This document shows positions 2,095 to 52,187 of a DNA stretch of 64,000 nucleotides, piece by piece (the stretch's first letter is position 1; each line of letters opens with the position of its first letter). Under the pieces are notes generated by a model, which saw only the letters and a list, made by a program, of their open reading frames with translations, had not been told where the DNA came from and did no database searches. Origin of the DNA: an uncultured Gemmatimonadales bacterium (GTDB lineage Bacteria > Gemmatimonadota > Gemmatimonadetes > Gemmatimonadales > GWC2-71-9); NCBI GenBank assembly GCA_963795085.1, contig CAWCFX010000006.1:1-64000 (forward strand), in the 5' to 3' direction. The position numbers were made by a program, and so were the translations under genes.

Positions 2095-4716
2095 TTAAGG
2101 GGCCAACGGAGGAACCACGGTCAGCGTCGGCAGGGAGGTCGTCACCGGGAGCCCGTCCAGGACCACCTCGATCGCCACGGCCGTGCCGGCCCCGGTCGCG
2201 GTGAGCCACACGGCGTAGCTCCCGTTCCCCAGGTTCTCGACCGGCCCGAAGGTCCCGGTGCTGGTGCCGCCTCCGAGAGAGAACCCGATCGCCACGGTCC
2301 GGTCGCCGCTGACGAGGGATCGTCCACTGGCGTCCCTTCCCTCCAGGGTCACGAGGAGCGAGTCCCCCACGACCACCGAGGCGGCCGGCGCGGTCACCAG
2401 GGACTGGTCCGGCGAGATGGTGCCGGCCACGACCTCCACGCTCGGCGGCGCGGTGGCCACCGGGGTGCCTTCGATGCTCGCGGTGACCGGGTCGGGCACA
2501 CCCGGCTCCACCAGGGTGGCGGTATAGACGGCAATGTACCGTCCGTTGCCCAGGTAGGTGGTCGGGCCCAGGGTGCCGTGGGGGGTTGCCCCGTGGATGG
2601 CGAGGGTGACCTGGCGGCCCCCGGTGACGAGGCTGTTGCCGGCGGCGTCCCGGGCCTGGAGCGTCGCGGTGGCGTGACCGCCGGAGTCCACCTGGGCGGG
2701 GAGGATGGTGACCGATGAGGTCTGGGGCGAGATATCGCCGGGGACGACGGTCAGCCGGGCCGGCGGACGGCTGAGCGGTACACCGTCAACCGAGGCGGAG
2801 ACGCTGGTCGCAGTGCCCGCGACCTGGCCGGTGAAGATGGCGGTGTAGCTGCCGTCGCCCTGATCGGCAACCGGGCCGAGCGACCCGGTGCTGGTCCCGC
2901 CAGCCACGCTGACCACCACCTGGTGCGGCAGGGTGACGGGACACCCGACGCCATCCCGCACCCGCACCGTGACAGTGGTGCTGACGCCGGACGGCAGGAT
3001 GGAATCGTTGACGGCGAGGTCCGAGGCGATCACCGAGACCGGCCCCGCCACGCAGCTGACCGAGATGGCCGGCCGGGTGGCCAGGAGCACGCCGTCCAGC
3101 CGGGCGGTCAGGGTGTCGGGCGTGCCCGCCGAATCGGCCACGTACCATGCGCTGTAGCGGCCGTCGTCCTGGTCGGCCACCGTCCCGATGCGGCCGACAC
3201 TGGTTCCTGGGCCGCCCACCCGGCCGAACAGCACGCTGCGCCCCCCCTGCCCCACCGGGTTGCCGAAGCCGTCCCGCACCTCGAGCAGCAGCCGGGCCGA
3301 GTCACCCAGCGTCAGCGTGGCGGGGAAGACGGAGAAGATGGTCGAGTCCACGGCATGGGGACCCGGGATCACCGTGATGGTCGGCAGGTGGGAGACGCCC
3401 AGCGAGTCGAGCATCTGGACCTGGCTGCTGTCGTTGATGATGGCGCCAATAGTGGTGGGAGACCCGGCGGCCTGTCCGGTGAACGGGGCCGAATAGGTTC
3501 CGTCGCCGTGGTCGGTGGCGGCGCCGATGGTCCCGGTGCTGCTTCCGCCGTCGGTGGTTGTCGTGAACACCACCGACAGCCCGCCACCGCTTGCCGGCAC
3601 GCTGTCCGCGTCCCGTACCACCAGCGTGAGGAGCGCGGATCCGCCGGCGGCCACGGTATCGGCCGACACGGCGATGGAGGAGTGCTGGGGCGAGATCCCG
3701 GACTGGTGGACGGTGATGGTCGGCCCGCCCATCACCGGCCTCCCGTCGAGGGTGGCGCTGATGGCGATGGCTCCCCCCGCGGCGGTCGCGGTGAAGTTCG
3801 CGGTATAGCTGCCATCGTCGTGGTCCACCGTGCTGTCAATGGTGCCCTGCCCGGCGCCCGGGCTGGCCAGGGCGGTGAAGACCACCGTCTCCCCGCCGCT
3901 GGTCCGGGCCACCCCTGCCGAATCCACCACCCGGAGCGTCAACGTCACGTCGCCGCCGATGGACACGGTGTCCGACGATACTTCGAGGTAGGAGGAATCG
4001 GGCGAGACGCCGGCGGCCACCGTCACGGTGGGCAGCGCCGTCGCGACCGGCACACCGTCCACCGTGGCGCTCACCGTGACCGGGGTGCCCCGGGCCGTGG
4101 CGGTGAAGACGGCGCTGTAGCGGCCATCCCCGTGGTCGGTCGTCGGGCCCAGGGTGCCGGCGCTGGTCCCCCCGCTCACGCCGAAGGCGACCAGCCGGCC
4201 TCCGCCGATCAGGTGGTTCCCCTGGGCGTCCCGGGTGACCAGCTCGACGGTGGCCGTGGCGCTGACGAGAATGGTGGCGGGGGTGACGCGGACCGTGGAG
4301 ACGACCGGGGAGACCGGCCCTGGCAGTACCTGCACGGTGGGAAGCGGGGTGGTCACCGGGGTGCCGTCCACCAGGGCGTTCACCGTGGCGGGGGTGCCCG
4401 CGGTGATCCCGGTGAAGAGGGCGCTGTAGCTGCCATCGGCGTGGTCGGTCACGACGCCGACGGTGCCGGCGCTGGTCCCCCCGCTCACCGCGAACCCGAC
4501 CGCCAACCCGCCCCCGCGCAGCCGCTCCCCGAACGCATCGTAGGCCACCAGGGTCAGCACGTTGCCCGCGCCGGCCAGCACAGTCGGGGAGGACACGCTC
4601 ACCACCGAGTGCGCCACCGAGACCGGCGCCCGGCTCGGCGCCAGCGCGTCGCTGCCGCAGGCGGCCACCACGGCGGCGAGCACCACGGCCAGCCGGTGGC
4701 CCGGCCGTGTCATCAT
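2095..4716 (-). CDS. Lipoprotein with about 8 invasin-type Ig-like repeats
   Basis: Lipobox LAAVVAAC; eight ~100-aa T/V/S/G-rich repeats, each with a D-x-G-D-G-x-Y-x-A-like motif; ATGA overlap with the upstream gene. Confidence 0.85.
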   Translation of the reverse strand: MMTRPGHRLAVVLAAVVAACGSDALAPSRAPVSVAHSVVSVSSPTVLAGAGNVLTLVAYDAFGERLRGGGLAVGFAVSGGTSAGTVGVVTDHADGSYSALFTGITAGTPATVNALVDGTPVTTPLPTVQVLPGPVSPVVSTVRVTPATILVSATATVELVTRDAQGNHLIGGGRLVAFGVSGGTSAGTLGPTTDHGDGRYSAVFTATARGTPVTVSATVDGVPVATALPTVTVAAGVSPDSSYLEVSSDTVSIGGDVTLTLRVVDSAGVARTSGGETVVFTALASPGAGQGTIDSTVDHDDGSYTANFTATAAGGAIAISATLDGRPVMGGPTITVHQSGISPQHSSIAVSADTVAAGGSALLTLVVRDADSVPASGGGLSVVFTTTTDGGSSTGTIGAATDHGDGTYSAPFTGQAAGSPTTIGAIINDSSQVQMLDSLGVSHLPTITVIPGPHAVDSTIFSVFPATLTLGDSARLLLEVRDGFGNPVGQGGRSVLFGRVGGPGTSVGRIGTVADQDDGRYSAWYVADSAGTPDTLTARLDGVLLATRPAISVSCVAGPVSVIASDLAVNDSILPSGVSTTVTVRVRDGVGCPVTLPHQVVVSVAGGTSTGSLGPVADQGDGSYTAIFTGQVAGTATSVSASVDGVPLSRPPARLTVVPGDISPQTSSVTILPAQVDSGGHATATLQARDAAGNSLVTGGRQVTLAIHGATPHGTLGPTTYLGNGRYIAVYTATLVEPGVPDPVTASIEGTPVATAPPSVEVVAGTISPDQSLVTAPAASVVVGDSLLVTLEGRDASGRSLVSGDRTVAIGFSLGGGTSTGTFGPVENLGNGSYAVWLTATGAGTAVAIEVVLDGLPVTTSLPTLTVVPPLAP

Positions 4717-17585: not shown

Positions 17586-19514
17586 CTACTCTCTCTCGGG
17601 GGGAAAGGCCATCTGGGTCCACCCCACCACGGCCCTGCCGTCACGGGTGGCCGGCCGCCACTCCATGGTGGCGGCGTACTGCCGGGCCAGCCGCTCGAAG
17701 GCGGCGTCGTTGCTGGGGTTGAATGGCCGCACCTCGAGGGTCTTTCCTTCCGCCGAGACCTCGATGAGCAGGACACTGGACCGCGGAATGCCTTCGATGT
17801 CTGCCGTCAGCGGCACGAAGGGAGCCTTGACCGGCCGGGGCCGCTGGTCGAAGCACTGCTGGTTCTGGTTGTAGCCGGCGACCGGCTCGTCGCAGCTGAC
17901 CGCAGCGGCGGGCGGTGTCGTTGGCCGGCGGGGCTGGGCGCGCGGCGGCGGGGCCGTTCCGCCCAGCGGAATAAGATTGGGCGTGACGTCGAGGGTGGCG
18001 CCGGGCGGGACGTCGAAGGTGTCGGCGAAGAAGTGGTGGCGGGGCGCCGTGATGGCGAGGACATGCCGTCCCGCCGGCAGCCGGATGGCCGCGCTGGTGA
18101 TCGGCTGTTCATCCACCATGACCCGGGTGCCGCGGGGCAGCCCGTTGAGCCGGATGCCGCCGCTGTCGGCAGGGACCGCCGGGGATCCCGGCGTCGAGTC
18201 CGGGGCGGCAACCGTGACCTGGGTATCGCCGGGGGCGGTGGCGAAGACCGGTACATCCGAGAGGTTGGCGATGGAATCGGGGATGGCGATCGGCCCCACC
18301 GTCCGGCTGTCCCGCGGGGCGGATTCCGCGGCCGGGGGACGCACGGCCCTGGGCATCCCGATGTAATAGTAGGCGGCCGCCGCGGCGACGCCGCCCAGCA
18401 GGAGCAGCATGGTCCAGAAGACGGCGGGGTTGCCGGATGGCTGCCGCCGCACCACGGGACGGCGGCTCCCCGCCGGACGGTCGGCCGGGCCCGCCGGTGC
18501 CGGGATGGTGGGCTGGCTCGGCGGTCCCGCCGCGCCGGTGGGGCGCGCCCCGAGGCCCGATCCGCGTAGCGTCCCCGCTACCACCTGCCCCTCCAGCGCC
18601 GCGATCATCTCCTCGCAGCTCTGGAACCGGTCGCCGGGAACCTTCTGCAGCATCCGCCGGATGACCTCGAAGATCCGCCGCTCATCCGGCGATTCCAGGC
18701 TGGGCACCGGAATCGGCTCCATGATGTGCTTGTAGCCGATGGCGAAACTGTCCTCCCCGTCGTAGGGCACCTTGCCGGTGAGGCAGAGGTAGGCGACGAC
18801 GCCGAGGCTGTAGATGTCGCTCCGGCCATCGGTGTTCTGGGCCCGGGCCTGTTCCGGGCTCATGTAGTGGGGCGTCCCGATAGACATGCCGGTGCCGGTG
18901 AGTTTCTGACCGGTGGCCGCCTTGGCGATGCCGAAGTCCGCCACCAGGCAGACCCCGTGCTCGTCGAACATGATGTTGTCGGGCTTGATGTCCCGGTGCA
19001 CGATGCCGCGGGTAGCGGCATGGCCCAGGGCCCCGCCGGCCTCCACCAGCAGGCGGCGGATCTCCGGCGGGGTGAGCCTGCCCCGGGCGTGCAGCAGGTG
19101 GGACAACGACTGGCCTCGCAGGAACTTCATCACGAAATAGGTGACGCGTCCCGCTTTGCCGACCCGGTAGATGGGGATGATGTTGGGATGCTCGAGCCCA
19201 GCCGCCGTCCGCGCTTCCCGCTGGAAGCGCTCGACAAACTCGGCGTCAAAGGCGAGTGAGAACGGAAGAACCTTGATCGCGACTTCGCGCTCGAGATGGA
19301 GGTCGCGGGCCCGGTACACGATGGCCATGCCACCGCGGCCCAGCTCCTCCAGGATCTCGTATTCCGCGGCCAGCGCCTCGCCTACGATGTCGCGCTCGGT
19401 GACTTCGGCGCTGGCAATGGCCTTGACCGGCGTGGTCGGGGCGAGATCCTGGCCGCAGTGGGTACAGACTTTCGCGGTGTCGTCGAGTTTGGTTCCGCAG
19501 CGGGAGCAGAACAT
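17586..19514 (-). CDS. Hanks-type Ser/Thr kinase: zinc ribbon, kinase, TM, PEGA-like and TonB-C-like C-terminus
   Basis: MFCSRCG...CTHCG; LGRGGMAIVY, VAIK, HRDIKPDN, DFGIAK, GTPHYMSPEQ; TM VFWTMLLLLGGVAAAAAYYYI. Confidence 0.92.
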   Translation of the reverse strand: MFCSRCGTKLDDTAKVCTHCGQDLAPTTPVKAIASAEVTERDIVGEALAAEYEILEELGRGGMAIVYRARDLHLEREVAIKVLPFSLAFDAEFVERFQREARTAAGLEHPNIIPIYRVGKAGRVTYFVMKFLRGQSLSHLLHARGRLTPPEIRRLLVEAGGALGHAATRGIVHRDIKPDNIMFDEHGVCLVADFGIAKAATGQKLTGTGMSIGTPHYMSPEQARAQNTDGRSDIYSLGVVAYLCLTGKVPYDGEDSFAIGYKHIMEPIPVPSLESPDERRIFEVIRRMLQKVPGDRFQSCEEMIAALEGQVVAGTLRGSGLGARPTGAAGPPSQPTIPAPAGPADRPAGSRRPVVRRQPSGNPAVFWTMLLLLGGVAAAAAYYYIGMPRAVRPPAAESAPRDSRTVGPIAIPDSIANLSDVPVFATAPGDTQVTVAAPDSTPGSPAVPADSGGIRLNGLPRGTRVMVDEQPITSAAIRLPAGRHVLAITAPRHHFFADTFDVPPGATLDVTPNLIPLGGTAPPPRAQPRRPTTPPAAAVSCDEPVAGYNQNQQCFDQRPRPVKAPFVPLTADIEGIPRSSVLLIEVSAEGKTLEVRPFNPSNDAAFERLARQYAATMEWRPATRDGRAVVGWTQMAFPPERE

Positions 19515-19550
19515 GGACGAAGCTAGGTAGTGAGAGATGCGGAGGTCAAG

Positions 19551-19676
19551 GGATTGAGGGAATTGTGGAATTGAGGGAATGTTGGAATTGAGGGAATTGA
19601 GGGAATGTTGGAATTGAGGGAATTGAGGGAATGTTGGAATTGAGGGAATTGAGGGAATGTTGGAATTGAGGGAATT
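19551..19676 (+). repeat. Tandem array of GGAATTGAG / GGAATGTT units (26-bp higher-order unit)
   Basis: Read directly: repeated GGAATGTT-GGAATTGAG-GGAATTGAG, ending at the stop codon of the four-helix-bundle gene. Confidence 0.95.
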
Positions 19677-20074
19677 TACTCCCTTCCTTCCTCCCGCCTC
19701 TGGTTTTGTCGGGCTGTCGCGCGAGTCGCCGTAAATATCGCGACCAGTTGCCCGGCCTCCGACAACGCTGAATCCAGGGCGGTGCCGGACAGGGTCCCCA
19801 AGTCTCTGGCGAACTCCAGCCAGAACTGCGACTCGTCAGCCTCCTCGAGGACCACGCCGATCTTGGAGATGAATTCCTTGCGGGACCTGGCCCGGCACGC
19901 CGCACGGTAGTTGGCTGCGACGGAAGTGCTCGAACGGATGAGCTGTCCAGCGACGTGTCTTCCGGATATGCTGGCCGGGGCGGACTCGCAAAGCCGGGTC
20001 GAATTCAGGGCAAAGTCCAAGGTGCGCTTGCGCATTGCGAGCTGCTTTTGCAGCGGACCGTCTGACGATCGCAT
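19676..20074 (-). CDS. Four helix bundle protein (23S rRNA IVS protein / TIGR02436-like)
   Basis: RTLDFA...QLIRSSTSVAANYRAACRARSRKEFISKIGVVLEEADESQFWLE; start is ATG 20074 or ATG 20035. Confidence 0.92.
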   Translation of the reverse strand: MRSSDGPLQKQLAMRKRTLDFALNSTRLCESAPASISGRHVAGQLIRSSTSVAANYRAACRARSRKEFISKIGVVLEEADESQFWLEFARDLGTLSGTALDSALSEAGQLVAIFTATRATARQNQRREEGRE

Positions 20075-20133
20075 GAACCAAACATGGGGAAGAAAGCTGA
20101 GAAATCATCATCCGAAAACCGCGAATCGGACCA

Positions 20134-20253
20134 AATTCCCTCAATTCCAACATTCCCTCAATTCCAACATTCCCTCAATTCCCAAATTCCCTCAATTCCA
20201 CCATTCCCTCAATTCCCACATTCCCTCAATTCCCCACATTCCCTCAATTCCCC
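20134..20253 (-). repeat. Tandem array of ~17-bp ATTCCCTCAATTCCAAC units, inverted relative to the 19551 array
   Basis: About 7 units; the reverse complement reads GGAATTGAG-GGAATGTT; overlaps the stop codon of the GWxTD gene. Confidence 0.95.
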
Positions 20254-22406
20254 ACCACCGTAAACCCCCGTTCCTGCCGCGCCCTTCTCCCGTCGGGCCC
20301 CGTCACCACGATCTCCAGCGTGTAGGCTCCCACGCCGAGCCGTTCCAGGTCAATGACCCGCCGGTTGCGGGTGACGTCGCTGCCGGCCGGGTCGGTAAAC
20401 CCGAGGGTCAGCTCCGCCCGGCTTCGCCGCTCCCGCTTCACCGCCAGCTGGGTGGTGTAGGTGGTCCCCGGCCGCAGCCCGTACACCTCGTAGTACAGCT
20501 CCATTTTCGACCCCTGCCGGAAGGTGCGCAGCGGGTTGAAGAACACGGTGTCCTCCGGCACCGGGTTCCAGGTCAGCGAGGATGCCCGGTTGCCCAGCAC
20601 CAGGTCGCTCAGCACCAGGGAGTCGCCGCCGAACCCGAAGCGGCCCACGATGACCGAGCCGGTGGGAAAGACGCCGCCGGTGGTCTCGCCCTGCTGCAGC
20701 GCGAGCCGGAACACCCGGACGCCCGCCGGGATGGTCATCGTCTCCCGGCCCGCGAGGAACTGGCCGGGCGGAATCGGCCCCCGCACGATGTAACGCCGGG
20801 TCGTGTCCATGGTCCCGATGAGTTCGCCGGCGAGGCTGGTGACCAGCACCCGGGTACGCAGCGTGTAACTGGTCTCCCCGTTGGCGGTCTCCGGCCGCAG
20901 CGAGTCGCCCGGAATAGCGTAGGTGAAGTGCACCAGCGATCCGCCTTCCCCCCGGCCGACCGCGAGCACCTGGGCCGCGGCGGGAAGTTTCCGCGGGAAG
21001 GTGAGTTCGTGCCGGTCGGTGGTGGTGCCTTCCTTGATGTCGTCAAAGCCCCGGGACTCCTGGTCCACCCGGAACCGGGCCATGCTGTTCGGGCCGGCGT
21101 TGACCAGCCGCGCGTACTCCGGCCCCCACTTGAACACCGGCGACACCCACAGGGTCTCCGGGGAACAGATGTCCAGCACGCTGGCCTCGAGCCGATATTC
21201 CCGGGCCGCGGTGGTGCCGATCGCCGCAAAGTGAAAGTGGAGGTCGCCGTCGCCGCGGGCATAGCGCCAGCTCACGCTGCAGAAGCCGGGATAGTCCACC
21301 CGTTCGGACGGTTCGCCGTGGCGGATGTAGATCTCGCCCCGGGCATCGTAGTCCCGTTGGGCCGAGCGATAGTCCTCGAAGGGGTCGCCGCCCTGGCTCT
21401 GGTGCACCGTGGAGCGGCGCTTGCCCGGCGGGCGCCGGAAGTAGCGATGGGCGTAGAAGAGCCGGCGATAGTGCTCGGCCAGCCGCTCTCCCGGGACCCT
21501 CATGTCGGCACGGTCCCGCCGGGTCCAGAACCGGCGGAGAAACGATGCCCTGCCGCCGGCGCCGGCGGCATCGTAGGCCCGGACCCCGGAATCGCCGGCG
21601 ATGAGCGCGAAGTCCCGGCGCAGTCCCCCGGTCACCATCGTGTCGTCCAGCGCGGCGAGCGCGTAGTACTCCCGCTGGGCATCGAGGCGCCCCATCGCGA
21701 GCAGGGTCCGCATCAGCTCGAACCGGCCCACCGCCTGCTTGCCCCCGCGCGCCAGGTAGAGCCGGTAGGCGGCCGCCGCGGAGTCGGCGTAGCCCATGTC
21801 CCGCTCCAGGTTGCCCCGCGCCAGGATGAACTCGGGGACCTGCCCCGCCGCGGTGCCCGCGGCGCGGCGGACCATGGACAGCGCCTCCTCCGGCTCGGCA
21901 TTGAAGTGTTGTCGGGAGACGACCGAGACCAGCGCGGTCAGCCCGGGCACGAACGCCGAATCGACCGTGGCGGAGCGGCGCAGCGCCGCCGCGGCCAGCG
22001 TCATGGGGTCGGAACCGAACATCGCCTGGAACCGGGCCCGGAGCCCGTAGGTGGTATCGGCGCCGGCCGCCTCGGTCTCGCCCAGTCCGAGCCAGGGATA
22101 GGGCCAGTCGGGTTTGAGCTCGGCCGCCCACTCGAACTCCGAGCCGGCGTCGTCGTAGCGCAGGGTGCTGCCCAGCTGGCCCAGCCGGAGCGCCAGGAAA
22201 CCGAGCCGGAGGTGCAGCAGGGGGTTGTCCCGGTCCCGCCTGGCGGCCGCGATCAGGTCCCGCTCCAGCACGACCAGCGGGATGCTGTCGGTGACCCGGG
22301 CCAGGGAATCGCGGAACCGCTCGAGATCGGCGCGCTGGGCGCTGTCCTGGCTGTGAAGAGGGGAAACCACACTAAGAAGGAGAGCGCCGACCAGGAAGCG
22401 GGTCAT
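20244..22406 (-). CDS. GWxTD domain-containing secreted protein (paralog 2)
   Basis: Signal peptide MTRFLVGALLL; FLRRFWTRRD...EHYRRLFYA...DARGEIYIRHGEP; TPR-like N-terminus, Ig-like C-terminus. Confidence 0.82.
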   Translation of the reverse strand: MTRFLVGALLLSVVSPLHSQDSAQRADLERFRDSLARVTDSIPLVVLERDLIAAARRDRDNPLLHLRLGFLALRLGQLGSTLRYDDAGSEFEWAAELKPDWPYPWLGLGETEAAGADTTYGLRARFQAMFGSDPMTLAAAALRRSATVDSAFVPGLTALVSVVSRQHFNAEPEEALSMVRRAAGTAAGQVPEFILARGNLERDMGYADSAAAAYRLYLARGGKQAVGRFELMRTLLAMGRLDAQREYYALAALDDTMVTGGLRRDFALIAGDSGVRAYDAAGAGGRASFLRRFWTRRDRADMRVPGERLAEHYRRLFYAHRYFRRPPGKRRSTVHQSQGGDPFEDYRSAQRDYDARGEIYIRHGEPSERVDYPGFCSVSWRYARGDGDLHFHFAAIGTTAAREYRLEASVLDICSPETLWVSPVFKWGPEYARLVNAGPNSMARFRVDQESRGFDDIKEGTTTDRHELTFPRKLPAAAQVLAVGRGEGGSLVHFTYAIPGDSLRPETANGETSYTLRTRVLVTSLAGELIGTMDTTRRYIVRGPIPPGQFLAGRETMTIPAGVRVFRLALQQGETTGGVFPTGSVIVGRFGFGGDSLVLSDLVLGNRASSLTWNPVPEDTVFFNPLRTFRQGSKMELYYEVYGLRPGTTYTTQLAVKRERRSRAELTLGFTDPAGSDVTRNRRVIDLERLGVGAYTLEIVVTGPDGRRARQERGFTVVGN

Positions 22407-22675
22407 CGACCAGCCGGAACTACAAAGCACGAAAGAAAGGGAAACGCGGGCCGACAATTTGCATTCTTACCTCGATTCGTCCATGAATCCCTAACTGCTC
22501 GAGCTACAACTTGAAATTCCGGCCTCGACTCTTATCCCTACACAGGCAACCGCGTGAACCATAAACGACGAAAGAAAAAGAACAACTTTGGAGAGGCAAT
22601 AGAGCGGCGGGTTTTTCTTCTTCTTTCCCACTTTGTCGTACCAGTGTTTTTGTCCATCCAGCAGGCATGCCCCCA

Positions 22676-24904
22676 CTACTCTTTTTCCTTGCTCACCTGG
22701 AAGGCCGCCCGCCGCTCGGCCCGTTTCCCATCCGCCGTGGTGATGATCAGGGTCAGCGTGTAATCGCCCTGGCGCACCCGTTCGAGCTTGATCGCCCGGT
22801 TGACGCGGGTGACCGTCCCCTGGCTCTTCTCCTCGTACTTGAGCGCGATGGCGGCCCGGCCGCCCTGCGGGCGTCCGACCCGGAGCTCCACGTCGTACGG
22901 GGTGCCGGCGGGGAGGCCGTACACCTCGTAGTACAGCTCCATGTCGGCGTTCTGCCGGTACACGCCGGTCGGGTTGAAGAACACGGTGTCCCCCGCCTCG
23001 CGCACCCAGCGCAGGTTGGCGTGCCGGGCCCCCAGCACCACCGAGCTGACCGTAAAGGACGCGCCATCGAAGCTGCCCACGTCGATCGTGGACGTCGGCA
23101 TCACGATGCCGGCCTGCTCGGTCTGGTCCACCGCGATCCGGTAGCTGAGCGTCCCCGCCGGCACGGCCAGGCTCATCCGGTCCACCAGGTTTTCGCCCTG
23201 GGGAATCTGGACCTGGCTCAGGAACATCTTGATGGTGTCCAGCGCGGCGACCACGTTGCCCTGCTGGTCCAGCACCGAGACCCGGAGCCGCACCGGGTAC
23301 ACGAACCCGGCCGGGTTGGGCACCGGTTTGAGGGTCGCGCCCGGCACCGCCCAGGTCACCTGCAGCAGGTTGCCGTCGGCGCTCCGGCCCACCGCCATCA
23401 CGTCGGTGCGGGCCCGGAGATTCTGGGCGAAGCGCAGCTGGTAGCTGTCGGAGGTGGTGCCCTGGGCGATGCTCTTCTGACCCATGCGGCGTTCTTCGCC
23501 GGTCATCATGATCCGCCCGGCCCGGCCCACGCCCTGCAGCCGGCTGTAGATCGGGTCGATCCGTTCCCGCGACTCCAGCAGCCGGGTCACCTCCAGCCCG
23601 CCCAGGCTGTCGCCGGCCTGGAACCGGACCGCGTTGGCATAGCCCAGCACGTCATAGAGCGACTCGATCAGCTTGTAGTCCTGCACGTCCTCCCGGGCGA
23701 CGAAGTGGAACACCAGGTTGCCGTCGATGCGGGCGTACTTCCAGGTCTCGTTCAGCTCGATGTTGGGAATGCCCAGGGTGGCCCGCTCGGTGGGCTCGCC
23801 GTGGCGGATGTAGATCAGGCCCCGGTCGTCGAACTCGGTGCTGTTGGAGCGGTAACGTTCCGCGATATCGTAGTGACGCTTGGTGCTCACCAGCGAGAAG
23901 TTGCGCTGGGCGTAATGCACTCGGCGGTAGTGCTCGGTCAGCCGCTCGTGATCGCCCCGGAGGTCAAGCCGGTCGCGGGCAGTCCAGAATTTCCCGAGGA
24001 ACGCGGCCCGGTCGGCCCCCGAGACCAGGTCGAATTGCGCCATGGTGCTGTCCGGCGCGATGTACAGGAGGTCCTTCCGATACTCGGCGATCCCGATGGA
24101 GTCGTCCAGCGCGGCGCCCTGGTAGTAGGCCTCGGAACCGGTCCGCGCCCCCGCCACGAACTGGGCCCGGGCCAGCTCGATCAGGCCCAGGGACCGGTTG
24201 ATGTTGCCGGCGCCGAGGTAGCGCTGGAAGGACATGACCGCCGTGTCCACGCTCCCTACCTGCCGCTCCACCCGCCCCCGCCACAGCAGCACGTCGGGAT
24301 TGCGCCCGGCCACGGTCGTGGACGCGATGCGAAGGGCTTCCCGCGCGAGATCCAGCTTGATGTTGACCCGCTGTTTGAGTGCGGTATTGGCCAGCTCCAC
24401 CAGGCCGCGCACGAAGGTGGGATCCACCTCGGCGGCCCGCGCAAAGGCCAGCGCGCCCTTGGTCATGTGGTCCTTGCCGAACATGTTCTGCAGCCCCGCC
24501 ACCAGCGCGATCTGCGGCTCGCCGATGCCCAGCTCGGCGAAGCCCAGCCCGTACCACCCGTAGGGCCAGTCCGGTTGGAGCTCGGTGGCCCAGTTGAACT
24601 CGCTGGCCGCGTCTTCGTAGCGTCGCTCCAGGCCCAGGTCGCCCAGCCGCAGGTTCACGAAACCAACCCGGATGTGGCCGAGGGCGTCCGTCCGGTTGGC
24701 CTTGGCCTCGTTCACCAGCCGACCTTCCAGGGCCAGCAGCGCAGTCGTATCGGTGATGCCCTGGAGCGAATCGCGGAAACTCTCGATCGCGGCCCGGTCC
24801 GCGGGAGCCTGGGCGCCAGCGGGGACGGGTGCCACGAGGGACGACAGGAGGCCGCCCACCAGGGAGAGGATGAGGCCGGAAGGACGAAGGCGGGAATGGA
24901 GCAT
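22676..24904 (-). CDS. GWxTD domain-containing secreted protein (paralog 1)
   Basis: Signal peptide; FLGKFWTARD...EHYRRVHYA...DDRGLIYIRHGEP...NETWKY; aligns along its length with 20244-22406. Confidence 0.85.
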   Translation of the reverse strand: MLHSRLRPSGLILSLVGGLLSSLVAPVPAGAQAPADRAAIESFRDSLQGITDTTALLALEGRLVNEAKANRTDALGHIRVGFVNLRLGDLGLERRYEDAASEFNWATELQPDWPYGWYGLGFAELGIGEPQIALVAGLQNMFGKDHMTKGALAFARAAEVDPTFVRGLVELANTALKQRVNIKLDLAREALRIASTTVAGRNPDVLLWRGRVERQVGSVDTAVMSFQRYLGAGNINRSLGLIELARAQFVAGARTGSEAYYQGAALDDSIGIAEYRKDLLYIAPDSTMAQFDLVSGADRAAFLGKFWTARDRLDLRGDHERLTEHYRRVHYAQRNFSLVSTKRHYDIAERYRSNSTEFDDRGLIYIRHGEPTERATLGIPNIELNETWKYARIDGNLVFHFVAREDVQDYKLIESLYDVLGYANAVRFQAGDSLGGLEVTRLLESRERIDPIYSRLQGVGRAGRIMMTGEERRMGQKSIAQGTTSDSYQLRFAQNLRARTDVMAVGRSADGNLLQVTWAVPGATLKPVPNPAGFVYPVRLRVSVLDQQGNVVAALDTIKMFLSQVQIPQGENLVDRMSLAVPAGTLSYRIAVDQTEQAGIVMPTSTIDVGSFDGASFTVSSVVLGARHANLRWVREAGDTVFFNPTGVYRQNADMELYYEVYGLPAGTPYDVELRVGRPQGGRAAIALKYEEKSQGTVTRVNRAIKLERVRQGDYTLTLIITTADGKRAERRAAFQVSKEKE

Positions 24905-24910
24905 TGGGTG

Positions 24911-27730
24911 TCAGAACTCCGAGTCGAAGCCGAGACCAAGGCGCACGGTTCCCCGCCGGGTGGCGGTACCGTCGCTGAGGGCGAGGGCCGCCCCCGTTCG
25001 GAGCCGGAGCGGCACATCGTATAAGACGACCAAGTCCCAGGTAACTTCCACGCCGGCGCTATGAATCCAGCCGGGACGGCCTGAAAATGGGGGTTCCCAC
25101 GCCCGGCCATGGTCATAGAAGAGTCGGAGACTGACCCGGTCAACGCCATAGGGCAAGTCCCAGAAGGGCTCCACCACCAGGGCGATGGGGATCCGGAGCT
25201 CCGCGCTGCCCACCGCCACGGTGCCGCCCCGGAGCTCCCCGGCTTCGAAGCCGCGTACCGGGAAGGCCCGCCCCGAGCCGACGACGATCCCCGGCAGGGG
25301 CTGGTACGTGATGCCGGACGCGCCCCCAACGCCGAAGGTTTCCCGATCCGGCCCCGACGAGGTGGCCGCGCTCACCCGTCCGGCAAGCACCGGATGGGCG
25401 AATCCGCCCAGCCCCTTGAGCGCCTGGTAGAGCGCCAGCCGGCCCCGCCACTCGTCGGACCCGCCCTCCCGGTCCAGCCGCCACCGCCGGCGGTACCGGA
25501 GGGACATGGTCGCACCATCCTCGTCGCTGATGGCGAGGGGCGGCCGCAAGGTGCGGCCTGCGGCGATGCCGACGCTGGCCGCACCATAGCTGGGGTTGAT
25601 GAAGTCCAGGTCCGGGTCGCTGCTGAAATGGTCTTCCTCGAAGTCCGCCGCCACCCGCAAGGTGAACGCCCGGTACCAGCGCCGCCCGGTGGAGTTGAAT
25701 CCGATCTCCGCGTCCCGCTCCCGGCTTACCACCGGCAGCGTATCCGGCGCGAAGACGACCAGCCCGGCATCGCCGTGGTCCTGGCCGAGGTACAGGTCCA
25801 CGGAGTGGCTGGCCCAGCGGCGATAGGTGAAGTAGAGCGAGGCGTCGAGCCGGCCGCCTTCGAATCCCCCGGCGAGCCGGGTCGAGTAGGCCAGCCGGCC
25901 AAGCGGGTCGCTGCCCGAAGTAAAGCCGCCGATGAAAAGACCGGCGGCGCCCTTGTCCACCAGGTACGGGATGAAATAGTGGGGGCGGAGGGCCGGCCAC
26001 GCCGCGTATCCGGTCGCCCTGACGGGCGTGGGGGAGGCCACCTCGGGAAGCGGCCGCTCCAGCACCCCGGGCCCCATGTCCTGCGCCGCCGGCCCGGTGG
26101 GCCAGGGAGTGCGCCGGACGGCCCAGCCATCCGCTTCCATCGAAGAGAAATAGAGCCAGCCCCCGTGGACCCCGGGCTGCCGGGCGCCGTAGGGTTCATC
26201 GGTCAGCTTTACCGGCTCGCCGTCGAGCGCCGTGAGATAGACCTGGGGCAATCCGCTCCGGTCGCTGACGTAGAGCAGCGTGTCATCCGTGACCCAGTTC
26301 GGGTCGGCGAGTACTTCGTTGGCCTGGCCGATGGTGAAGACATTGCCGGCCGAGTCGCCCTGGAGCCGGAGATGGTAAAACCCCCGGTAGTGCCAGGCCG
26401 CGGCCAGCCGGCCGGCGGGACTGATCGCGGGCGACGCGAACGACCCGGCCAGGCGCTGCTCGGTACGCGGACGAATCGAGTCGCCCCCCACCTGCACCAG
26501 CCGGTTGCCCTCGGGGCCCAGCTGCACCGCCACGATCTGGCCGGCGGCCACCGCGAGATCGGTCAGCCGCTGGCCGTGGGTGAGCCGCTGCCACCGCCCC
26601 CCGGCCAGCCGGTAGAGATCAGAGCGGTAGGTGGCCGAATTTTCCAGCTCGAGCCGGGTGGCGTAGAGCGTGTCGCCGGCCCAGGCCAGATCGACGCCGC
26701 CGGTGGTGAGATGGTGCTCCAGCCGGCCGTCGGCGCGGCGGATGACGATCTGGGGCGCCGCGTCTTCGCTCGCCTCGAACCAGGCCACGGCTCCGTCGCG
26801 GGAGACGGCGGGGGCGGGCGGCAGCCGCATCCCGCGGGCGATTACCTCGGAGCGCGACGGCGGCCGGTCGGCAACCTGGCGGCGGTAGTCATCGGCCAGG
26901 TCCTGCCAGAGGCTGTCCCGACGGAACCCGGTCGCCAACCGGAGCGGCCGGCCGGTACGGGTGGGAACCCACTGGCCCGAGGTCCGTTCGACCAGCCGCG
27001 AGACGGCAGAGTCTCCCCCGGCCACGGCGAGCCGCTCGAAGAACCGGGAGCCGAACGCGTAGGGGGCGACGCCGTCGGGCCAGTGCTCGGAGATGTAGGT
27101 CGCCTCGTTGGGCCGCGGCCACCGGCCCCCGCCGGCGCTGGACAAGAGCACCTCGGTGTGCAGGCTGCCATACACCCGGCCCCGGCCGGTGAGGTGGCTC
27201 TCGTACCAGGTGGCGATCCCTTCGGTGACCCAGGAGGGCTGATACAGGTTGGGAAAGGCGCCGGGCACCCGGCCCAGCACCGACTGCACCAGCCGCCAGG
27301 GTCCCTTCACCCGGTCCAGGTGGAAGATGTGGGTCAGCTCGTGGACGATGACGGTGCGGAGCCAGTCGTCGTAGTTCTGGAGGTCCGGCTCGGCGGTGGG
27401 TGGTGCCAGCAGCAGGGTGATCCGGTTGCTGGGAAAGATGCTGGCGGCGCCGTTGGAGAAGTCGGCGGCATCGCTCAGCACGATATCCACGTCCTGCCGC
27501 GGGGGGACCAGTTCCCGGGAGAGAAGCGTGTAGGCCCGCTCGGCTTCCCTCGCGGCATGCTGCGCGACCGAGTCGTAGCCGGCGCGGAAGTGGAGGCGGA
27601 AGTGCTCGGTGTGAAGGGTGCGCCAGGAACCGGCCGGGTTGACCTGGGCCGGGAGGGGAGCGCCGAAGACAACGACAACCAGGAACAGCCAGAATATTCG
27701 GGTCAGTTTTCGTCCTTTACTTGCGGGCAT
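24911..27730 (-). CDS. Outer-membrane protein: zincin-like HExxH domain, beta-propeller, Omp85/BamA-like barrel
   Basis: Signal peptide; WRTLHTEHF, VHELTHIFH, WVTEGIA; YVSDRSGLPQVY (PD40-like); VRGF...SAELRIP; C-terminal Phe. Confidence 0.75.
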   Translation of the reverse strand: MPASKGRKLTRIFWLFLVVVVFGAPLPAQVNPAGSWRTLHTEHFRLHFRAGYDSVAQHAAREAERAYTLLSRELVPPRQDVDIVLSDAADFSNGAASIFPSNRITLLLAPPTAEPDLQNYDDWLRTVIVHELTHIFHLDRVKGPWRLVQSVLGRVPGAFPNLYQPSWVTEGIATWYESHLTGRGRVYGSLHTEVLLSSAGGGRWPRPNEATYISEHWPDGVAPYAFGSRFFERLAVAGGDSAVSRLVERTSGQWVPTRTGRPLRLATGFRRDSLWQDLADDYRRQVADRPPSRSEVIARGMRLPPAPAVSRDGAVAWFEASEDAAPQIVIRRADGRLEHHLTTGGVDLAWAGDTLYATRLELENSATYRSDLYRLAGGRWQRLTHGQRLTDLAVAAGQIVAVQLGPEGNRLVQVGGDSIRPRTEQRLAGSFASPAISPAGRLAAAWHYRGFYHLRLQGDSAGNVFTIGQANEVLADPNWVTDDTLLYVSDRSGLPQVYLTALDGEPVKLTDEPYGARQPGVHGGWLYFSSMEADGWAVRRTPWPTGPAAQDMGPGVLERPLPEVASPTPVRATGYAAWPALRPHYFIPYLVDKGAAGLFIGGFTSGSDPLGRLAYSTRLAGGFEGGRLDASLYFTYRRWASHSVDLYLGQDHGDAGLVVFAPDTLPVVSRERDAEIGFNSTGRRWYRAFTLRVAADFEEDHFSSDPDLDFINPSYGAASVGIAAGRTLRPPLAISDEDGATMSLRYRRRWRLDREGGSDEWRGRLALYQALKGLGGFAHPVLAGRVSAATSSGPDRETFGVGGASGITYQPLPGIVVGSGRAFPVRGFEAGELRGGTVAVGSAELRIPIALVVEPFWDLPYGVDRVSLRLFYDHGRAWEPPFSGRPGWIHSAGVEVTWDLVVLYDVPLRLRTGAALALSDGTATRRGTVRLGLGFDSEF

Positions 27731-27751
27731 CAGGCCACGACGCACCGCATA

Positions 27752-27882
27752 TTCCGAGGCGCTTTAACGCAGAGAGCGCAGAATGAACTGAGAGAAGGCG
27801 GAAACCAGGAACAGGTCCTTAGTTGTTGAACTGCGACCTTGTTGTTCAACTGGGCGTATCTCCGCGTTAATGTGCCTCGGAA
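27752..27882. mobile_element. MITE-like element, copy 1, with GxxExxY-type terminal inverted repeats
   Basis: Left TTCCGAGGCGCTTTAACGC; right GCGTTAATGTGCCTCGGAA; internal GTTGAAC...GTTCAAC inverted pair; no credible gene. Confidence 0.6.
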
Positions 27883-27948
27883 CCAGAATCCATTCCGACC
27901 TTCAACACCCAGCCCGGTTGCGGGCGTCAGGCCCCGACGCACCGCCTA

Positions 27949-28081
27949 TTCCGAGGCGCTTTAACGCAGAGAACACAGAAATGAACCGCGAGAACGCGGA
28001 AACCATGAACTAGTCCTTAGTTGTTGAACTGCGGCCTCGTTGTTCAACTCAGCGTCTCTCCGCGTTAATGTAGCCTCGGAA
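27949..28081. mobile_element. MITE-like element, copy 2
   Basis: Left TTCCGAGGCGCTTTAACGC; right GCGTTAATGTAGCCTCGGAA; same internal inverted pair. Confidence 0.6.
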
Positions 28082-28119
28082 CCGGAATCCATTCCGTCAT
28101 TCAACACCCAGCCCGGTAC

Positions 28120-30087
28120 CTACCGCTTCGCCCGTGCCCGCAAGAACTCCTTCACCCCCTCGAACACCCCAACCGCGTACAACCGCTGCCCCTCGGGCTG
28201 CCGCAACGCTGCCTCCTGGTCCGGCAGCATCATGAACAGCCCCTCGGTGAGAATGGCCGGCATCCAGGTGGGCCGCACGAGGGCCAGGTCGCCGCGGCCC
28301 ACGCCCAGGTCCCGGAGCCCCAGCTGCTCCACCAGGGCGCGCTGGACCGCCATGGCCAGCGGGATACTGCGCGGGTGATTGTAGTACACGCTGGTGCCGT
28401 TGTTGGTGAAGGGGTTCACTCCGTCCGGCAGCGCGTTGTTGTGGATCGAGACCAGCAGGTCGGCGTCCACGCTGTCCGCCAGCCGGACCCGGGGCCAGAG
28501 TTCCACCGGGGTATCGGTGGTGCGGGTCATGATGACCTCCGCGCCGGCGGCGGCCAGCAGGTCGCGAAGAATGTGGCTCACCGCCAGGTTCGCCTCCGCC
28601 TCCCGCAACCCGGTGGGACCGGTGGCGCCAACCGGCGGGTGCCCGGCGTCCACCACGATTCGGCGGCCGGCCAGCGGGTTGGCGGGATCCACGCGCGGCG
28701 GGCGGCGGATCTCCAGGATCAGGTCATTCCGCTGCCACCGGGTCCGGAACCCCCACACCGGCTCGGCCAGGTCAAAATCCACCGTCACCTCGTCGGCCGC
28801 CGGCTGGTCCCATGCAATGCTCTTGATGTAGGGGTCAGTGCCGCCGTAGCGGATCCAGTTGACGTCGCCGGCCGCGCTCTGCAGGCGCAGCCGGATCCGG
28901 CGCTCGTCTTCGATTACCTGGAAGGGAATCCGCTGGCTCAGCGGCAGCCGGAAGATGAACCGGTCGCCGGCGGGCGTGAGCGTGGCCGAACCCACCACGG
29001 CGCGGAGCGGCGGCAGGCCCGGGGGCAGCGGCTGCGCATCTTCCGCACTGATCCAGCTGCTGCTGGCCGCGGAGAGCCGGAGGCGCAGGTCGCCGTTCAC
29101 CCGGCCAGAGACCTGGGCCCGGGTGCCGGTGGGGAAGAACCACTGGTAGGTACCGCCGGGGAGCGCGCGGCCCACCGTGATTCCGTCGGTGAAACCGGTG
29201 TGGGCGGTGTCGTCGTCCAGCTGCACCAGGATCGGAAGGGTGTCGAGCAGCCGGAGCCGGATCGGCCAGGTCGCTCGCACGGTATCGGACCCCAGGACCG
29301 CTTCCACGCTGGGGAATGCGGTGGAATCAGACCCGGAGTCGCCGGCGGTTCCAACGGCGGGCCCCGGATCGGGGCCCAGACGGGTCCCCCGGATGCTGGC
29401 AGTGTATCGGTCGGCCCGGATCGGGCTGGCCAGGTTGCCGGTGTCGCGGTCGAAGGCCCGGATCCCCCAGGCCACGTCGCCGTAGCGGGGGTCGGTGACC
29501 ATCGGGATCCGGCTCCCGCCAGGAAGGACGATGGACACCGAGGCACCTTCCGAGGCCCGGACGGAGACGGCTATGTACTCGTCGGCCGGCCACCAGATCC
29601 GGCCCCGGGGACTCGTGGACGCCGAGTCCAGCCAGAGCGGACCGCCGGGGGCCATCCGGGCGGGACGCTTCAGTTCGAGTGTGGAGGTCTTCTGTTCGGC
29701 GCCGCGGGAGGCCACCAGCTCGAACCGCATGAGGGTATCCCGGGGAAACTCGATCCAGGCCAGCCAGGCGCCGTTGGGCCACACGGTGACGGTCTGCCCG
29801 TTGATCGTGAGCGCCGCGTCGCCGCTGCCCACCGACCCGAACATGAAGCTCGAATCACCGGTCTCTATCCGGGAACCGGCCGGAGGATAGATCACCCGGA
29901 TGGCCAGCGGACCCACGACCACCGGGACGGGCGGAAGCTTCCCACTGCTCCGAAAGGACGAATCGGCCACCCAAGCGGCGGGGGGATCACTGACCGGGCG
30001 GACCTCCACCCGGCCGGGGCCCCCGCCCGGGGCGCAGCCCAAAGCCAGGAGGCCCAGGCCAACGGCGAGGATGCGGACCTGTTTCAT
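28120..30087 (-). CDS. N-acetylmuramoyl-L-alanine amidase (Amidase_3), lipoprotein
   Basis: Lipobox LALGC; IVVDAGH...E...VIMTR...VSIHNNA...PAILTE. Confidence 0.9.
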   Translation of the reverse strand: MKQVRILAVGLGLLALGCAPGGGPGRVEVRPVSDPPAAWVADSSFRSSGKLPPVPVVVGPLAIRVIYPPAGSRIETGDSSFMFGSVGSGDAALTINGQTVTVWPNGAWLAWIEFPRDTLMRFELVASRGAEQKTSTLELKRPARMAPGGPLWLDSASTSPRGRIWWPADEYIAVSVRASEGASVSIVLPGGSRIPMVTDPRYGDVAWGIRAFDRDTGNLASPIRADRYTASIRGTRLGPDPGPAVGTAGDSGSDSTAFPSVEAVLGSDTVRATWPIRLRLLDTLPILVQLDDDTAHTGFTDGITVGRALPGGTYQWFFPTGTRAQVSGRVNGDLRLRLSAASSSWISAEDAQPLPPGLPPLRAVVGSATLTPAGDRFIFRLPLSQRIPFQVIEDERRIRLRLQSAAGDVNWIRYGGTDPYIKSIAWDQPAADEVTVDFDLAEPVWGFRTRWQRNDLILEIRRPPRVDPANPLAGRRIVVDAGHPPVGATGPTGLREAEANLAVSHILRDLLAAAGAEVIMTRTTDTPVELWPRVRLADSVDADLLVSIHNNALPDGVNPFTNNGTSVYYNHPRSIPLAMAVQRALVEQLGLRDLGVGRGDLALVRPTWMPAILTEGLFMMLPDQEAALRQPEGQRLYAVGVFEGVKEFLRARAKR

Positions 30088-30130
30088 GCGTCCCAAGGTA
30101 CAATAGGACTAGGACTTACGCCAAGCGGGC

Positions 30131-37592: not shown

Positions 37593-37664
37593 CAGCGGTT
37601 AACCATCAGTCCATCATCGCCCGGTGCAGGTGCGGAGGGACACGCCGACATTCGCGCATGCTGG

Positions 37665-43026: not shown

Positions 43027-43065
43027 GTGAGAAGTGAGAAGTGAGAAGTGAGAAGTGAGAAGTGA
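43027..43065 (+). repeat. (GTGAGAA)x5 plus a partial unit
   Basis: Read directly, just downstream of the ggt stop. Confidence 0.95.
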
Positions 43066-43082
43066 ACCAATTTCGATGTGCG

Positions 43083-43113
43083 GGGTACCAGTCCTTCAGC
43101 TGGTACCCTTTTT
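43083..43113 (+). terminator. Intrinsic terminator after ggt
   Basis: GGGTACCAG-loop-CTGGTACCC followed by TTTTT. Confidence 0.8.
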
Positions 43114-43124
43114 CATTGCGAGCG

Positions 43125-43637: not shown

Positions 43638-43682
43638 CCATCTTCCCCTTGCCCCCTTGCCCCCCTGACCCTCTTGCCCCCT
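43631..43682 (+). repeat. Degenerate CCCCTTGC-type octamer run between convergent genes
   Basis: cccctgaccatcttccccttgcccccttgcccccctgaccctcttgccccct. Confidence 0.65.
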
Positions 43683-43683
43683 T

Positions 43684-51944: not shown

Positions 51945-51957
51945 GAGAAGCGTCCGG

Positions 51958-52046
51958 AGTGCAGAGTACAGAGGGCAGAGGGCAGAGGGCAGAGTGCAGG
52001 GTGCAGAGTACAGGGTGCAGCGTGCAGCGTGCAGAGTGCAGAGTAC
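51958..52046 (+). repeat. 12 degenerate AGTGCAG heptamers
   Basis: Read directly (AGTGCAG, AGTACAG, AGGGCAG, GGTGCAG and CGTGCAG variants). Confidence 0.93.
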
Positions 52047-52115
52047 TCAGTTCCGGCAGCTCGGATCTTTGCATATCACCTCGTGACTCGGTAGTCAACT
52101 GGATGGGGAGTTCAC

Positions 52116-52187
52116 CTGCACTCTGCCTCGGCTCAGCACTCAGCACTCAGCACTCAGCACTCAGCACTCAGCACTCAGTACTCGGCA
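52116..52187 (+). repeat. (CAGCACT)x6 plus degenerate units, near-inverted to the 51958 array
   Basis: Six perfect units at 52134-52175; reverse complement AGTGCTG; CTGCACTCTGC at 52116 is an exact inverse of part of the left array. Confidence 0.93.

Follow-up and report, generated by a model that had tools for sequence, protein, structure and literature searches.

The window analysed here is a stretch of 64,000 nucleotides from an uncultured Gemmatimonadales bacterium (GenBank assembly GCA_963795085.1, contig CAWCFX010000006.1, positions 1 to 64,000). It contains a small gene for a four-helix-bundle (4HB) protein of the S23p/intervening-sequence (IVS) protein family, enclosed by two arrays of short tandem repeats in inverted orientation; gene and arrays together are referred to here as the cassette. 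One array directly adjoins the stop codon of the 4HB gene and forms the 3′ arm, and the other lies upstream on the gene strand and forms the 5′ arm. An earlier interpretation made from the DNA letters alone (the sequence-only reading) had described this arrangement, and both Tandem Repeats Finder (TRF) and an inverted-repeat search bear it out. The association between such arrays and 4HB genes appears to be very widespread, and is undescribed as far as could be found; the present locus is an ordinary member of it.

The 3′ arm has a period of 26, made up of GGAATTGAG, GGAATGTT and again GGAATTGAG, and is present in 4.2 copies with a 100% match, and the 5′ arm was assigned periods of 17 and 51 with a match of 90–94% (both TRF). 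As inverted repeats the arms extend over 117 nt (19550–19666 and 20152–20268) and are 73% complementary, and shorter sub-arms of 49 nt reach 94%. The predicted minimum free energy of the 726-nt cassette RNA is −364.7 kcal/mol compared to −265 ± 9 kcal/mol for 20 shuffled sequences (z = −10.6). Both arrays are paired in the predicted fold as one long stem of ~120 bp with the 4HB open reading frame (ORF) as its loop, consistent with the earlier suggestion that the arrays could loop the gene out. The leader ahead of the start codon carries a motif (...GCGG.T...GATGATG...) which, in an alignment, is kept in the homologous cassettes of two congeneric species (genomes G003 and G004). The units run head-to-tail with no spacers between them, which sets the locus apart from a CRISPR array; covariance models of Rfam 15 gave no match at E ≤ 1 in 19300–20500, and there is no transposase inside the cassette. 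Four DNA metagenome runs yielded short contig pieces of low depth at 18900–20900, some of them identical to the 4HB gene and none reaching across an arm or the cassette; joints were seen only in the kinase gene.

Table 1. Features of the cassette, its surroundings and related sites in the window.
Feature	Position	Strand	Remarks
4HB gene (TIGR02436 / PF05635, S23p/IVS-protein family, Avd-like fold)	19676..20074	-	132-aa ORF
3′ arm relative to the gene	19553..19676		tandem (GGAATTGAG / GGAATGTT)n on + strand; (CTCAATTCC...)n on gene strand
5′ arm relative to the gene	20131..20251		reverse-complement units on + strand; (GGAATTGAG/GGAATGNNG)n on gene strand
Leader between 5′ arm and start codon	20075..20130	-	56 nt
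Upstream neighbour, GWxTD-domain gene	20244..22457	-	TIGR04514, 28.6 bits (cut-off 28)
Downstream neighbour, zinc-ribbon Ser/Thr protein kinase	17586..19514	-	PF00069, 7e-45; other border of the insertion site
Gene-less repeat hairpin	51957..52187		(GAGTGCA)12.6, 87-nt loop, (CTCAGCA)8; G-rich arm first, imperfectly complementary
Empty site 2	37593..37664		72-bp array-free spacer between two - strand genes; ortholog of the G004 4HB cassette site (unit GTGATTTA)

The 132-aa protein matches PF05635 (52.1 bits, cut-off 33.8) and TIGR02436 (75.2 bits, cut-off 24) and no other Pfam or NCBIfam model, and PADLOC assigns it to no defence-system family. Its AlphaFold model, made with 16 homologues as input, consists of four helices with a mean predicted local distance difference test (pLDDT) score of 98.1. 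The closest structures found by Foldseek are the chains of 2RLD and 2GSC—Bacteroides thetaiotaomicron BT_0352, labelled ‘S23 ribosomal protein family’, and Xanthomonas campestris Xcc0516—with template modelling (TM) scores of 0.81–0.87, and 2RLD is also the sole match in a phmmer sequence search of the PDB (1.1e-10). Next comes Avd, from the diversity-generating retroelement (DGR) of a Bordetella phage (4DWL, 8UBB and related entries), at a TM score of 0.75–0.78 and 12–13% identity in the structural alignment. Family models and structures thus agree with the kinship to IVS-encoded proteins and Avd that had been read from the sequence, and PF05635 has itself been reported as an Avd-like Pfam family (PMC10053308). 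Both 2RLD and 2GSC contain five chains, and the Xanthomonas relative is described as a homopentamer (PMC4990558); by analogy, the 132-aa protein may form a homopentameric ring. The homologous ORFs in the two congeneric species are intact (64% and 53% amino acid identity) and the ratio of nonsynonymous to synonymous substitution rates (dN/dS) is 0.22 for the one homologue pair in which dS is unsaturated, so the protein appears to be maintained by selection. To our knowledge, no function has been assigned to PF05635/TIGR02436 outside DGRs.

The cassette is not alone in its genome. The assembly (3.89 Mb in 6 contigs, 93% complete) has six matches to TIGR02436: five that exceed the cut-off and a 35-aa remnant. 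Inverted tandem arrays flank five of these six matches, among them the remnant, and the unit is a different one each time: the 13-mer AGAACAGGGCGGT, GGGACAGT/GGGTCAGT, GCAGCGT, the GGAATTGAG type and ATTGCCG. The sixth locus (L002) has just 2.4 copies of AGGACTG, upstream of the gene. Over the whole genome TRF finds 569 merged arrays, and 255 of these were assigned by their 7-mers to seven unit families: GGAATTGAG (78 arrays), GGGACAGT/GGGTCAGT (63), GAGTGCA (47), AAGGGGGC (35), GCAGCGT (14), ACAGGGCGGT (14) and ATTGCCG (4). About 250 arrays of these seven families are gene-less, and the families found at the five 4HB matches account for 173 of the 255. The arrays are largely intergenic, with 79% of their bases outside crudely called genes whose coverage of the genome is 82.5%; they are found between convergent genes in 26% of cases (baseline 15%) and between divergent genes in 8% (baseline 15%).

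These arrays follow a strict polarity. In all 30 tight hairpins, that is same-family neighbours within 100 nt of each other, the G-rich array comes first and its reverse complement second. Among the remaining 195 arrays a short reverse-complement partner is present on that same inner side in 32, and on the outer side in none. The G-rich array therefore stands 5′ of its complement, on either strand, in all 30 tight and 32 partial hairpins, the opposite order occurring in 0. Where same-family pairs in the G-first order are separated by a gap of 400–800 nt, a 4HB gene or remnant lies inside in five cases and an alpha/beta-hydrolase gene in one.

Two orthologous sites in the genus are empty. In G003 the orthologs of the kinase gene (83% DNA identity) and the GWxTD gene lie ~230 bp apart on one contig, with no 4HB gene and no array between them; this site (L042, contig C63, ~3822–4053) contains a palindromic element of another kind, GTCATCCCGAGCGCAGCGAGGGATCTC... 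with its complement, and one copy of GGGAATTGAAGG stands beside the start of the kinase gene. The window's GWxTD ORF ends in ...GGG AAT TGA, its last two codons and stop (20244–20252) lying inside the first unit of the 5′ arm, and the array-free G003 ortholog ends differently, in keeping with the proposal that the upstream array supplies the end of this gene. The kinase/GWxTD site coincides with contig ends in G002 and G004, and the closest congeneric homologues of the window's 4HB gene are located elsewhere, on contig C410 of G003 and contig C1 of G004. The second empty site is in the window itself (Table 1): the flanks of the G004 cassette match window positions 39367–37711 and 37583–35973 (blastn), on either side of the array-free spacer. 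Arrays and gene were thus gained or lost together at two independent orthologous sites. This supports the view, reached earlier from the sequence, of a repeat-bounded cassette inserted in an operon-like gene run, for which a search for empty sites had been proposed as a check.

The arms also change in concert. Three homologous cassettes of the genus have the units GGAATTGAG/GGAATGTT, GGGATTGT and GTGATTTA, with a matching complementary 3′ arm each time, so that the arms stay complementary while the unit changes between loci. Sharing of a unit between loci tracks protein identity: it is seen in 3/3 pairs with at least 80% amino acid identity, in 2/4 at 70–80%, in 7/27 at 60–70% and in <1% below 50%. 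This indicates that gene and arms descend together; it is by itself no proof of specific recognition, as orthologous loci may be included among the close pairs. The sequence (GGGTGTA)3, built from the unit of cassettes L009 and L011, is present in 4/4 genomes of their genus (28, 13, 6 and 1 matches) and in 0/27 others, and a reversed control gave 0 matches. In one genome (G028, contig C1, 21500–24500; locus L195) the ~420 nt that separate two tight (GGGTGTA)n/(CTACACC)n hairpins contain no 4HB ORF.

The 4HB family is present in 26 of 31 genomes of the order (30 relatives and the own genome). Most of the 29 loci in relatives have inverted arrays of 7–8-nt units that are specific to the locus, among them AGGGTGT, TAGGGGC, GGAAGCG, GGGATTC, GAGACAA and GTTGAAC. 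For other phyla, a 5-sequence profile was run against one genome per species, and the best 80 of 596 relatives (600 candidate stretches) were kept, with protein similarity as the sole criterion. Their sources are Acidobacteriota, Planctomycetota, Proteobacteria, Chloroflexota, Bacteroidota, Firmicutes, Nitrospirota, candidate phyla and one archaeon. With 5 loci of the own genome (the remnant being excluded) and the 29 of the relatives, these make up a set of 114 loci, in which TRF arrays with a period up to 30 and a score of at least 40 were counted. One relative, G018, contributes a single locus without arrays, and no claim is built on it.

Arrays lie on both sides of the gene in 55 of the 114 loci, on one side in 39 and on neither in 20, so that at least one side is occupied in 94. 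The two-sided count is conservative: TRF assigned a period of 51 to the upstream array of the present locus, which for this reason was itself counted as one-sided. Array density is 2.8–4.5 per kb up to a distance of 200 bp from the 4HB gene, compared to ~0.3 per kb farther out. Two arrays were taken as reverse-complementary if at least 30% of the 6-mers of the right array also occur in the left array read as its reverse complement; this applies to 44 of the 55 two-sided loci versus 0.65% of 1077 shuffled pairs, and a direct arrangement is seen in 2/55. Flanking inverted arrays are therefore strongly enriched beside homologous genes, which is the check that the sequence-only reading had set itself. 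Left arrays are richer in G than in C in 69/84 cases and right arrays richer in C than in G in 67/81. The period is 7 in 79 of 165 arrays, 14 in 33, 21 in 9 and 28 in 1, such multiples of 7 making up 122, and it is 8 in 12 and 16 in 7. Outside the own genome the median arm is 34 nt long (interquartile range 31–45), and arrays with a period of 7 have a median of 4.6 copies, or about 4–5 heptamers.

A second control was made with random samples, because the outer flanks of the loci are mostly coding. Samples of 150–200 kb from six genomes of the order, which have 0, 0, 8, 4, 2 and 2 4HB genes, contained 0–4 arrays of at least 3 copies each, compared to 7.7 per 100 kb in the own genome. A link at the level of the genome, between the number of 4HB genes and that of dispersed arrays, was rejected, dispersed arrays being almost absent from the 200-kb samples of the genomes with 8, 4 and 2 genes. 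The presence of arrays beside 4HB genes is general; large numbers of gene-less arrays are a trait of the own genome and, by published descriptions, of a few others. Duplex energies of the 230-nt flanks reach z < −3 at 54 of 107 loci. The 55 loci without two-sided TRF arrays account for 26 of these, a hint that some array-less loci have plain stems; the measure is noisy, random controls already reaching −100 kcal/mol. As a check of read-through expression, the upstream neighbour was found co-oriented with the 4HB gene at 80 loci and oppositely oriented at 29, near the degree of co-orientation usual in bacteria; this result was left unused since it depends on crude ORF calls that are unreliable in GC-rich loci. 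A sample of 401 genomes, from the class to which one gammaproteobacterial locus belongs, had 0 matches to (GGGAATC)3 and is evidently without Xanthomonas-like genomes. In one genome of the same sample (G248) the reversed control pattern had 8 matches, which are CTAAGGG-type heptamer arrays, another lineage-private heptamer family.

The family also occurs on plasmids. A tblastn search against plasmids found it in 29 records, mostly from cyanobacteria by organism name (Nostoc 12, Calothrix 4 and others), annotated as ‘four helix bundle protein’ or ‘S23 ribosomal protein’. Eight stretches of plasmid or named examples were inspected. In Nostoc punctiforme and Trichormus variabilis, (TCAGGAG/TCAGAAT)n immediately precedes the start codon and its reverse complement spans the stop, and the Gemmatirosa locus has arrays of 8-mers. 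On a Picosynechococcus plasmid (L131), (AGGAGATA)n precedes and (ATCTCCTA)n follows a 4HB gene located between cas10/cmr2 and cmr3, and on a Pseudanabaena plasmid (L128) arrays of 14–16 heptamers accompany a 4HB gene between cas6 and cas4. Cassettes of this kind inside cas operons may be the basis of reported links between the family and CRISPR loci, and we suspect that their arrays could be mistaken for CRISPR-like arrays beside cas genes. Plasmids gamma and alpha of Nostoc sp. PCC 7120 (L124, L125) encode an identical 4HB protein, and on each a transposase gene ends just upstream. In Geobacter metallireducens, insertion sequence (IS) elements have been described at a fixed distance from paired repeat sites (PMC2700814).

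Two further features were seen in the window. The GWxTD-domain gene is the first of two adjacent paralogues upstream (20244–22457 and 22676–24904; 737 and 742 aa, both on the minus strand). A 198-bp unit, unrelated to the short-unit arrays, is present twice with an 89% match at 27721–28117, in the spacer of two minus-strand genes (~24911–27745 and 28120–30096).

Among known elements, the cassette is closest in its parts to the ORF-bearing IVSs of 23S rRNA. The IVS of Coxiella burnetii has an S23p ORF in a loop; its terminal inverted repeats pair into a 28-bp stem that closes this structure and within which RNase III cuts in vitro, and 2–3 tandem GACAGAT heptamers, variable between strains, lie just before the ORF (Warrier et al. 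2016, PMC4990558). Earlier work on the IVSs of Leptospira and Salmonella, together with the idea that the ORF serves mobility, is cited in the same paper. What the cassette has in common with these IVSs (those of Coxiella burnetii and, as cited, of Leptospira and others) is an S23p-family protein encoded in the loop, a terminal inverted-repeat stem enclosing the ORF, as in the predicted fold, and tandem short units just upstream of the ORF, which in Coxiella are heptamers. It differs in lying between protein-coding genes, and not in helix 9, 25 or 45 of 23S rRNA, in having arms that consist wholly of tandem units and reach ~120 nt, and in the dispersal of its unit families throughout the genome. 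Strict membership of the IVS class fails because the large-subunit (LSU) rRNA gene of the own genome has no match in any of 128 4HB loci (blastn), so that none of these overlaps such a gene. The cassette is thus a variant of the IVS kind and not a member of it, with all the parts of an IVS but the defining location.

Other systems share single aspects of this organisation. With Avd, the DGR accessory protein, the 132-aa protein has the four-helix-bundle fold in common; unlike a DGR, the cassette is found in a genome without a reverse transcriptase, no match to PF00078 being present in the whole assembly, which extends to genome scale the earlier remark that none lies nearby, and no long direct repeat pair of the template/variable type occurs in 19400–20400. 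Repetitive extragenic palindromic (REP) sequences and their REP-associated tyrosine transposases (RAYTs) consist of a small gene between inverted short repeats and many gene-less intergenic copies, often arranged as hairpin pairs and near the 3′ ends of genes, with one repeat family for each copy of the gene. The inverted flanking repeats and the dispersed gene-less copies resemble this REP/RAYT (REPIN) arrangement, as an analogy of organisation only. The 4HB protein has no known catalytic motif and is not a Y1 (IS200/IS605-like) transposase, and the repeats are tandem arrays of 7–13-nt units in place of single palindromes. Terminal inverted sequences, an intergenic place, presence/absence polymorphism and many short gene-less copies recall MITEs (miniature inverted-repeat transposable elements). 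Unlike MITEs and other small non-autonomous transposons, however, the cassette has termini that are tandem arrays of variable length, with no transposase and no readable target-site duplication.

Intergenic tandem repeats of 7–8-nt units have been described in several bacteria. In Xanthomonas, GGGAATC heptamers form 70–75 convergent plus/minus pairs, are 89–93% intergenic and are fewer between divergent genes, and GGGGAYT repeats are reported in Nostoc (PMC4692102). Geobacter metallireducens has paired hepta- and octamers on opposite strands, termed ‘global regulator sites’, in 24, 21 and 8 pairs (PMC2700814), and TAACTGA repeats are described in Beggiatoaceae, cyanobacteria and Bacteroidetes (PMC4679880). 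The gene-less arrays of the own genome behave like these classes and like the short tandemly repeated repetitive (STRR) sequences of cyanobacteria. The arrays differ from those classes, as far as the accessible descriptions go, in that they bracket a 4HB gene in most loci.

Taken together, the locus is probably one copy of a widespread, compact IVS-type cassette outside rRNA, in which a 4HB ORF is looped out by an inverted-array stem that RNase III would process and whose repeats the protein would bind. A transcript crossing the cassette on either strand would form a double-stranded stem of ~30–120 bp. RNase III would cut this stem, releasing the loop with the ORF and separating the flanking messages, as in IVSs; as a putative RNase III substrate, the stem would allow insertion inside operons or rRNA to be tolerated. 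The 4HB protein, as a presumed pentameric nucleic-acid-binding protein, would act on its own repeat arms, and an arm of 4–5 heptamers (~34 nt) would correspond to about one unit per subunit. Binding to the arm may set the expression or processing of the protein itself, or may aid the persistence and spread of the element. The five-chain relatives, the Avd scaffold—which is RNA-binding in structure entries of the DGR ribonucleoprotein—the arms of about five heptamers and the separate unit family of each gene copy suggest that the ring binds its own repeats. The G-rich-first order of the arms is not accounted for by stem stability. It may help to keep Rho from loading on unpaired C-rich sequence, it may place purine-rich, Shine-Dalgarno-like units before the ORF, or it may reflect a directional way in which arrays are made.

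Several observations weigh against this IVS-type reading. A scan for sigma-70-like promoters found 0 sites at the cassette leader, and both genes that flank the 4HB gene of G004 are on the opposite strand to it, so expression by read-through cannot be general. Target-site duplications are unreadable at both empty sites, whose spacers are non-alignable. The location in 23S rRNA, on which the IVS class depends, is seen at none of the loci compared, and for the Coxiella IVS the case has been made that the protein is probably not produced (PMC4990558). Of the 114 loci, the 20 without detectable array and the 39 with an array on one side do not have the full arrangement, and the sampled genomes with 8, 4 and 2 4HB genes are almost free of dispersed arrays. 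In the own genome the GAGTGCA and AAGGGGGC families have no 4HB gene in the assembly. The arrays there are also not exclusive to 4HB genes: inverted GGGACAGT-type arrays surround a 191-aa alpha/beta-hydrolase gene (C6:748688–749484, L200), and in the window a 191-aa ORF resembling SRPBCC/polyketide cyclases (43062–43637; PF10604, 26.9 bits, just below the cut-off) lies between a G-rich array, (GTGAGAA)5.6 at 43027–43065, and a C-rich array of CCCCTTGC type at 43631–43683. The latter two arrays are of different families and non-complementary; the bracketing of the hydrolase shows that other cargo, or chance enclosure, occurs.

The bracketing of unrelated genes might be taken to mean that repeats and gene have no functional link, slippage-prone repeats gathering in spacers and the 4HB gene being bracketed by chance or preferring existing hairpins. 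The 255 arrays of the own genome, their location mostly outside called genes and their excess between convergent genes are in line with such a view, as is the attribution of the prokaryotic heptamer excess to polymerase slippage (Mrazek 2007, as cited in PMC4679880 and PMC4692102). However, the association persists across phyla and in genomes with almost no other arrays, the empty sites are without arrays as well as without the gene, and reverse-complementary arms are far more frequent than in shuffled pairs. Array density, complementarity and the background samples largely refute this explanation, which we regard as very improbable. A similarly slight probability is given to a retroelement accessory role, in which the 4HB protein would work with a reverse transcriptase in the manner of Avd and the arrays would be products or templates, for example of telomerase-like or rolling-circle addition of units. 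The Avd-like fold speaks for it, and the G-rich strand runs 5′ to 3′ toward the centre in every tight and partial hairpin, as if both ends of a break had been extended by one templated unit. The absence of PF00078 matches from the 93%-complete genome makes such a mechanism unlikely here; no reverse transcriptase lies in the cassette either, and no template/variable repeat pair was seen.

An alternative that is a good deal less probable than the IVS-type cassette, yet more plausible than the two just discussed, places the emphasis on recognition: as in REP/RAYT, each 4HB paralogue would recognise its own unit as RNA, ssDNA or DNA, with the flanking arrays as its operator or home site, the gene-less arrays regulated, maintained or spread in trans, and the stem secondary. 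The distribution of the own-genome matches over different unit families that together hold most of the dispersed arrays is as expected for such pairs, and so is the confinement of (GGGTGTA)3 to the genus whose cassettes use that unit. The typical arm of 4–5 heptamers would suit the five chains of the solved relatives and the homopentamer described for Xanthomonas, the next structural match belongs to a ribonucleoprotein, and the paired sites of Geobacter and the TAACTGA repeats of Beggiatoaceae have been proposed to bind regulators, as yet unnamed in those descriptions (PMC2700814, PMC4679880). Against this stand the two families without a 4HB gene, the near absence of arrays at L002, and the genomes in which several 4HB genes coexist with hardly any dispersed arrays in 200-kb samples. 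The unit sharing of close proteins is possibly the plain common descent of the whole cassette, and strict complementarity of the arms would be unnecessary for a simple binding site. The IVS-type cassette with a looped-out ORF therefore remains the preferred reading.

A bolder proposal joins these elements, and is offered tentatively, as an idea that is rather doubtful at present: 4HB proteins would be the missing partners of prokaryotic short tandem repeats, most of them heptamers. A pentamer would read about five of its own units, the gene would travel in an inverted pair of arrays, within operons or rRNA, and be cut out by RNase III, and in some genomes it would seed hundreds of gene-less arrays. 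If this were true, the IVSs of 23S rRNA, STRR sequences, the Xanthomonas GGGAATC repeats, the Geobacter sites and the general excess of heptamers would be faces of one system, organised like REP/RAYT and run by a non-enzymatic nucleic-acid-binding ring.

In open-access full text no paper was found that links tandem arrays with 4HB genes in general, subscription-only literature being outside this scope. The terms ‘S23’ and ‘helix bundle’ are absent from 12 of the 19 supplementary files of PMC2700814, in which PDF tables are possibly unreadable and of which the remaining seven may bear on the point. A practical warning also follows from the locus, as arrays of this kind break short-read assemblies; the contigs of two genomes of the same genus end there.

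PF05635/TIGR02436 is a large family whose structure has been solved twice, and it is tied here to short tandem repeats. The excess of heptamers in prokaryotes, together with STRR sequences, Xanthomonas GGGAATC, Beggiatoaceae TAACTGA and the paired sites of Geobacter, has so far been without an explanation. Two questions can be put to the bench: whether the 4HB ring binds its own repeats, and whether RNase III cuts the stem. The arrangement of a 4HB gene within inverted arrays may help to explain why short tandem repeats, mostly of 7 bases, are so common in bacterial genomes.

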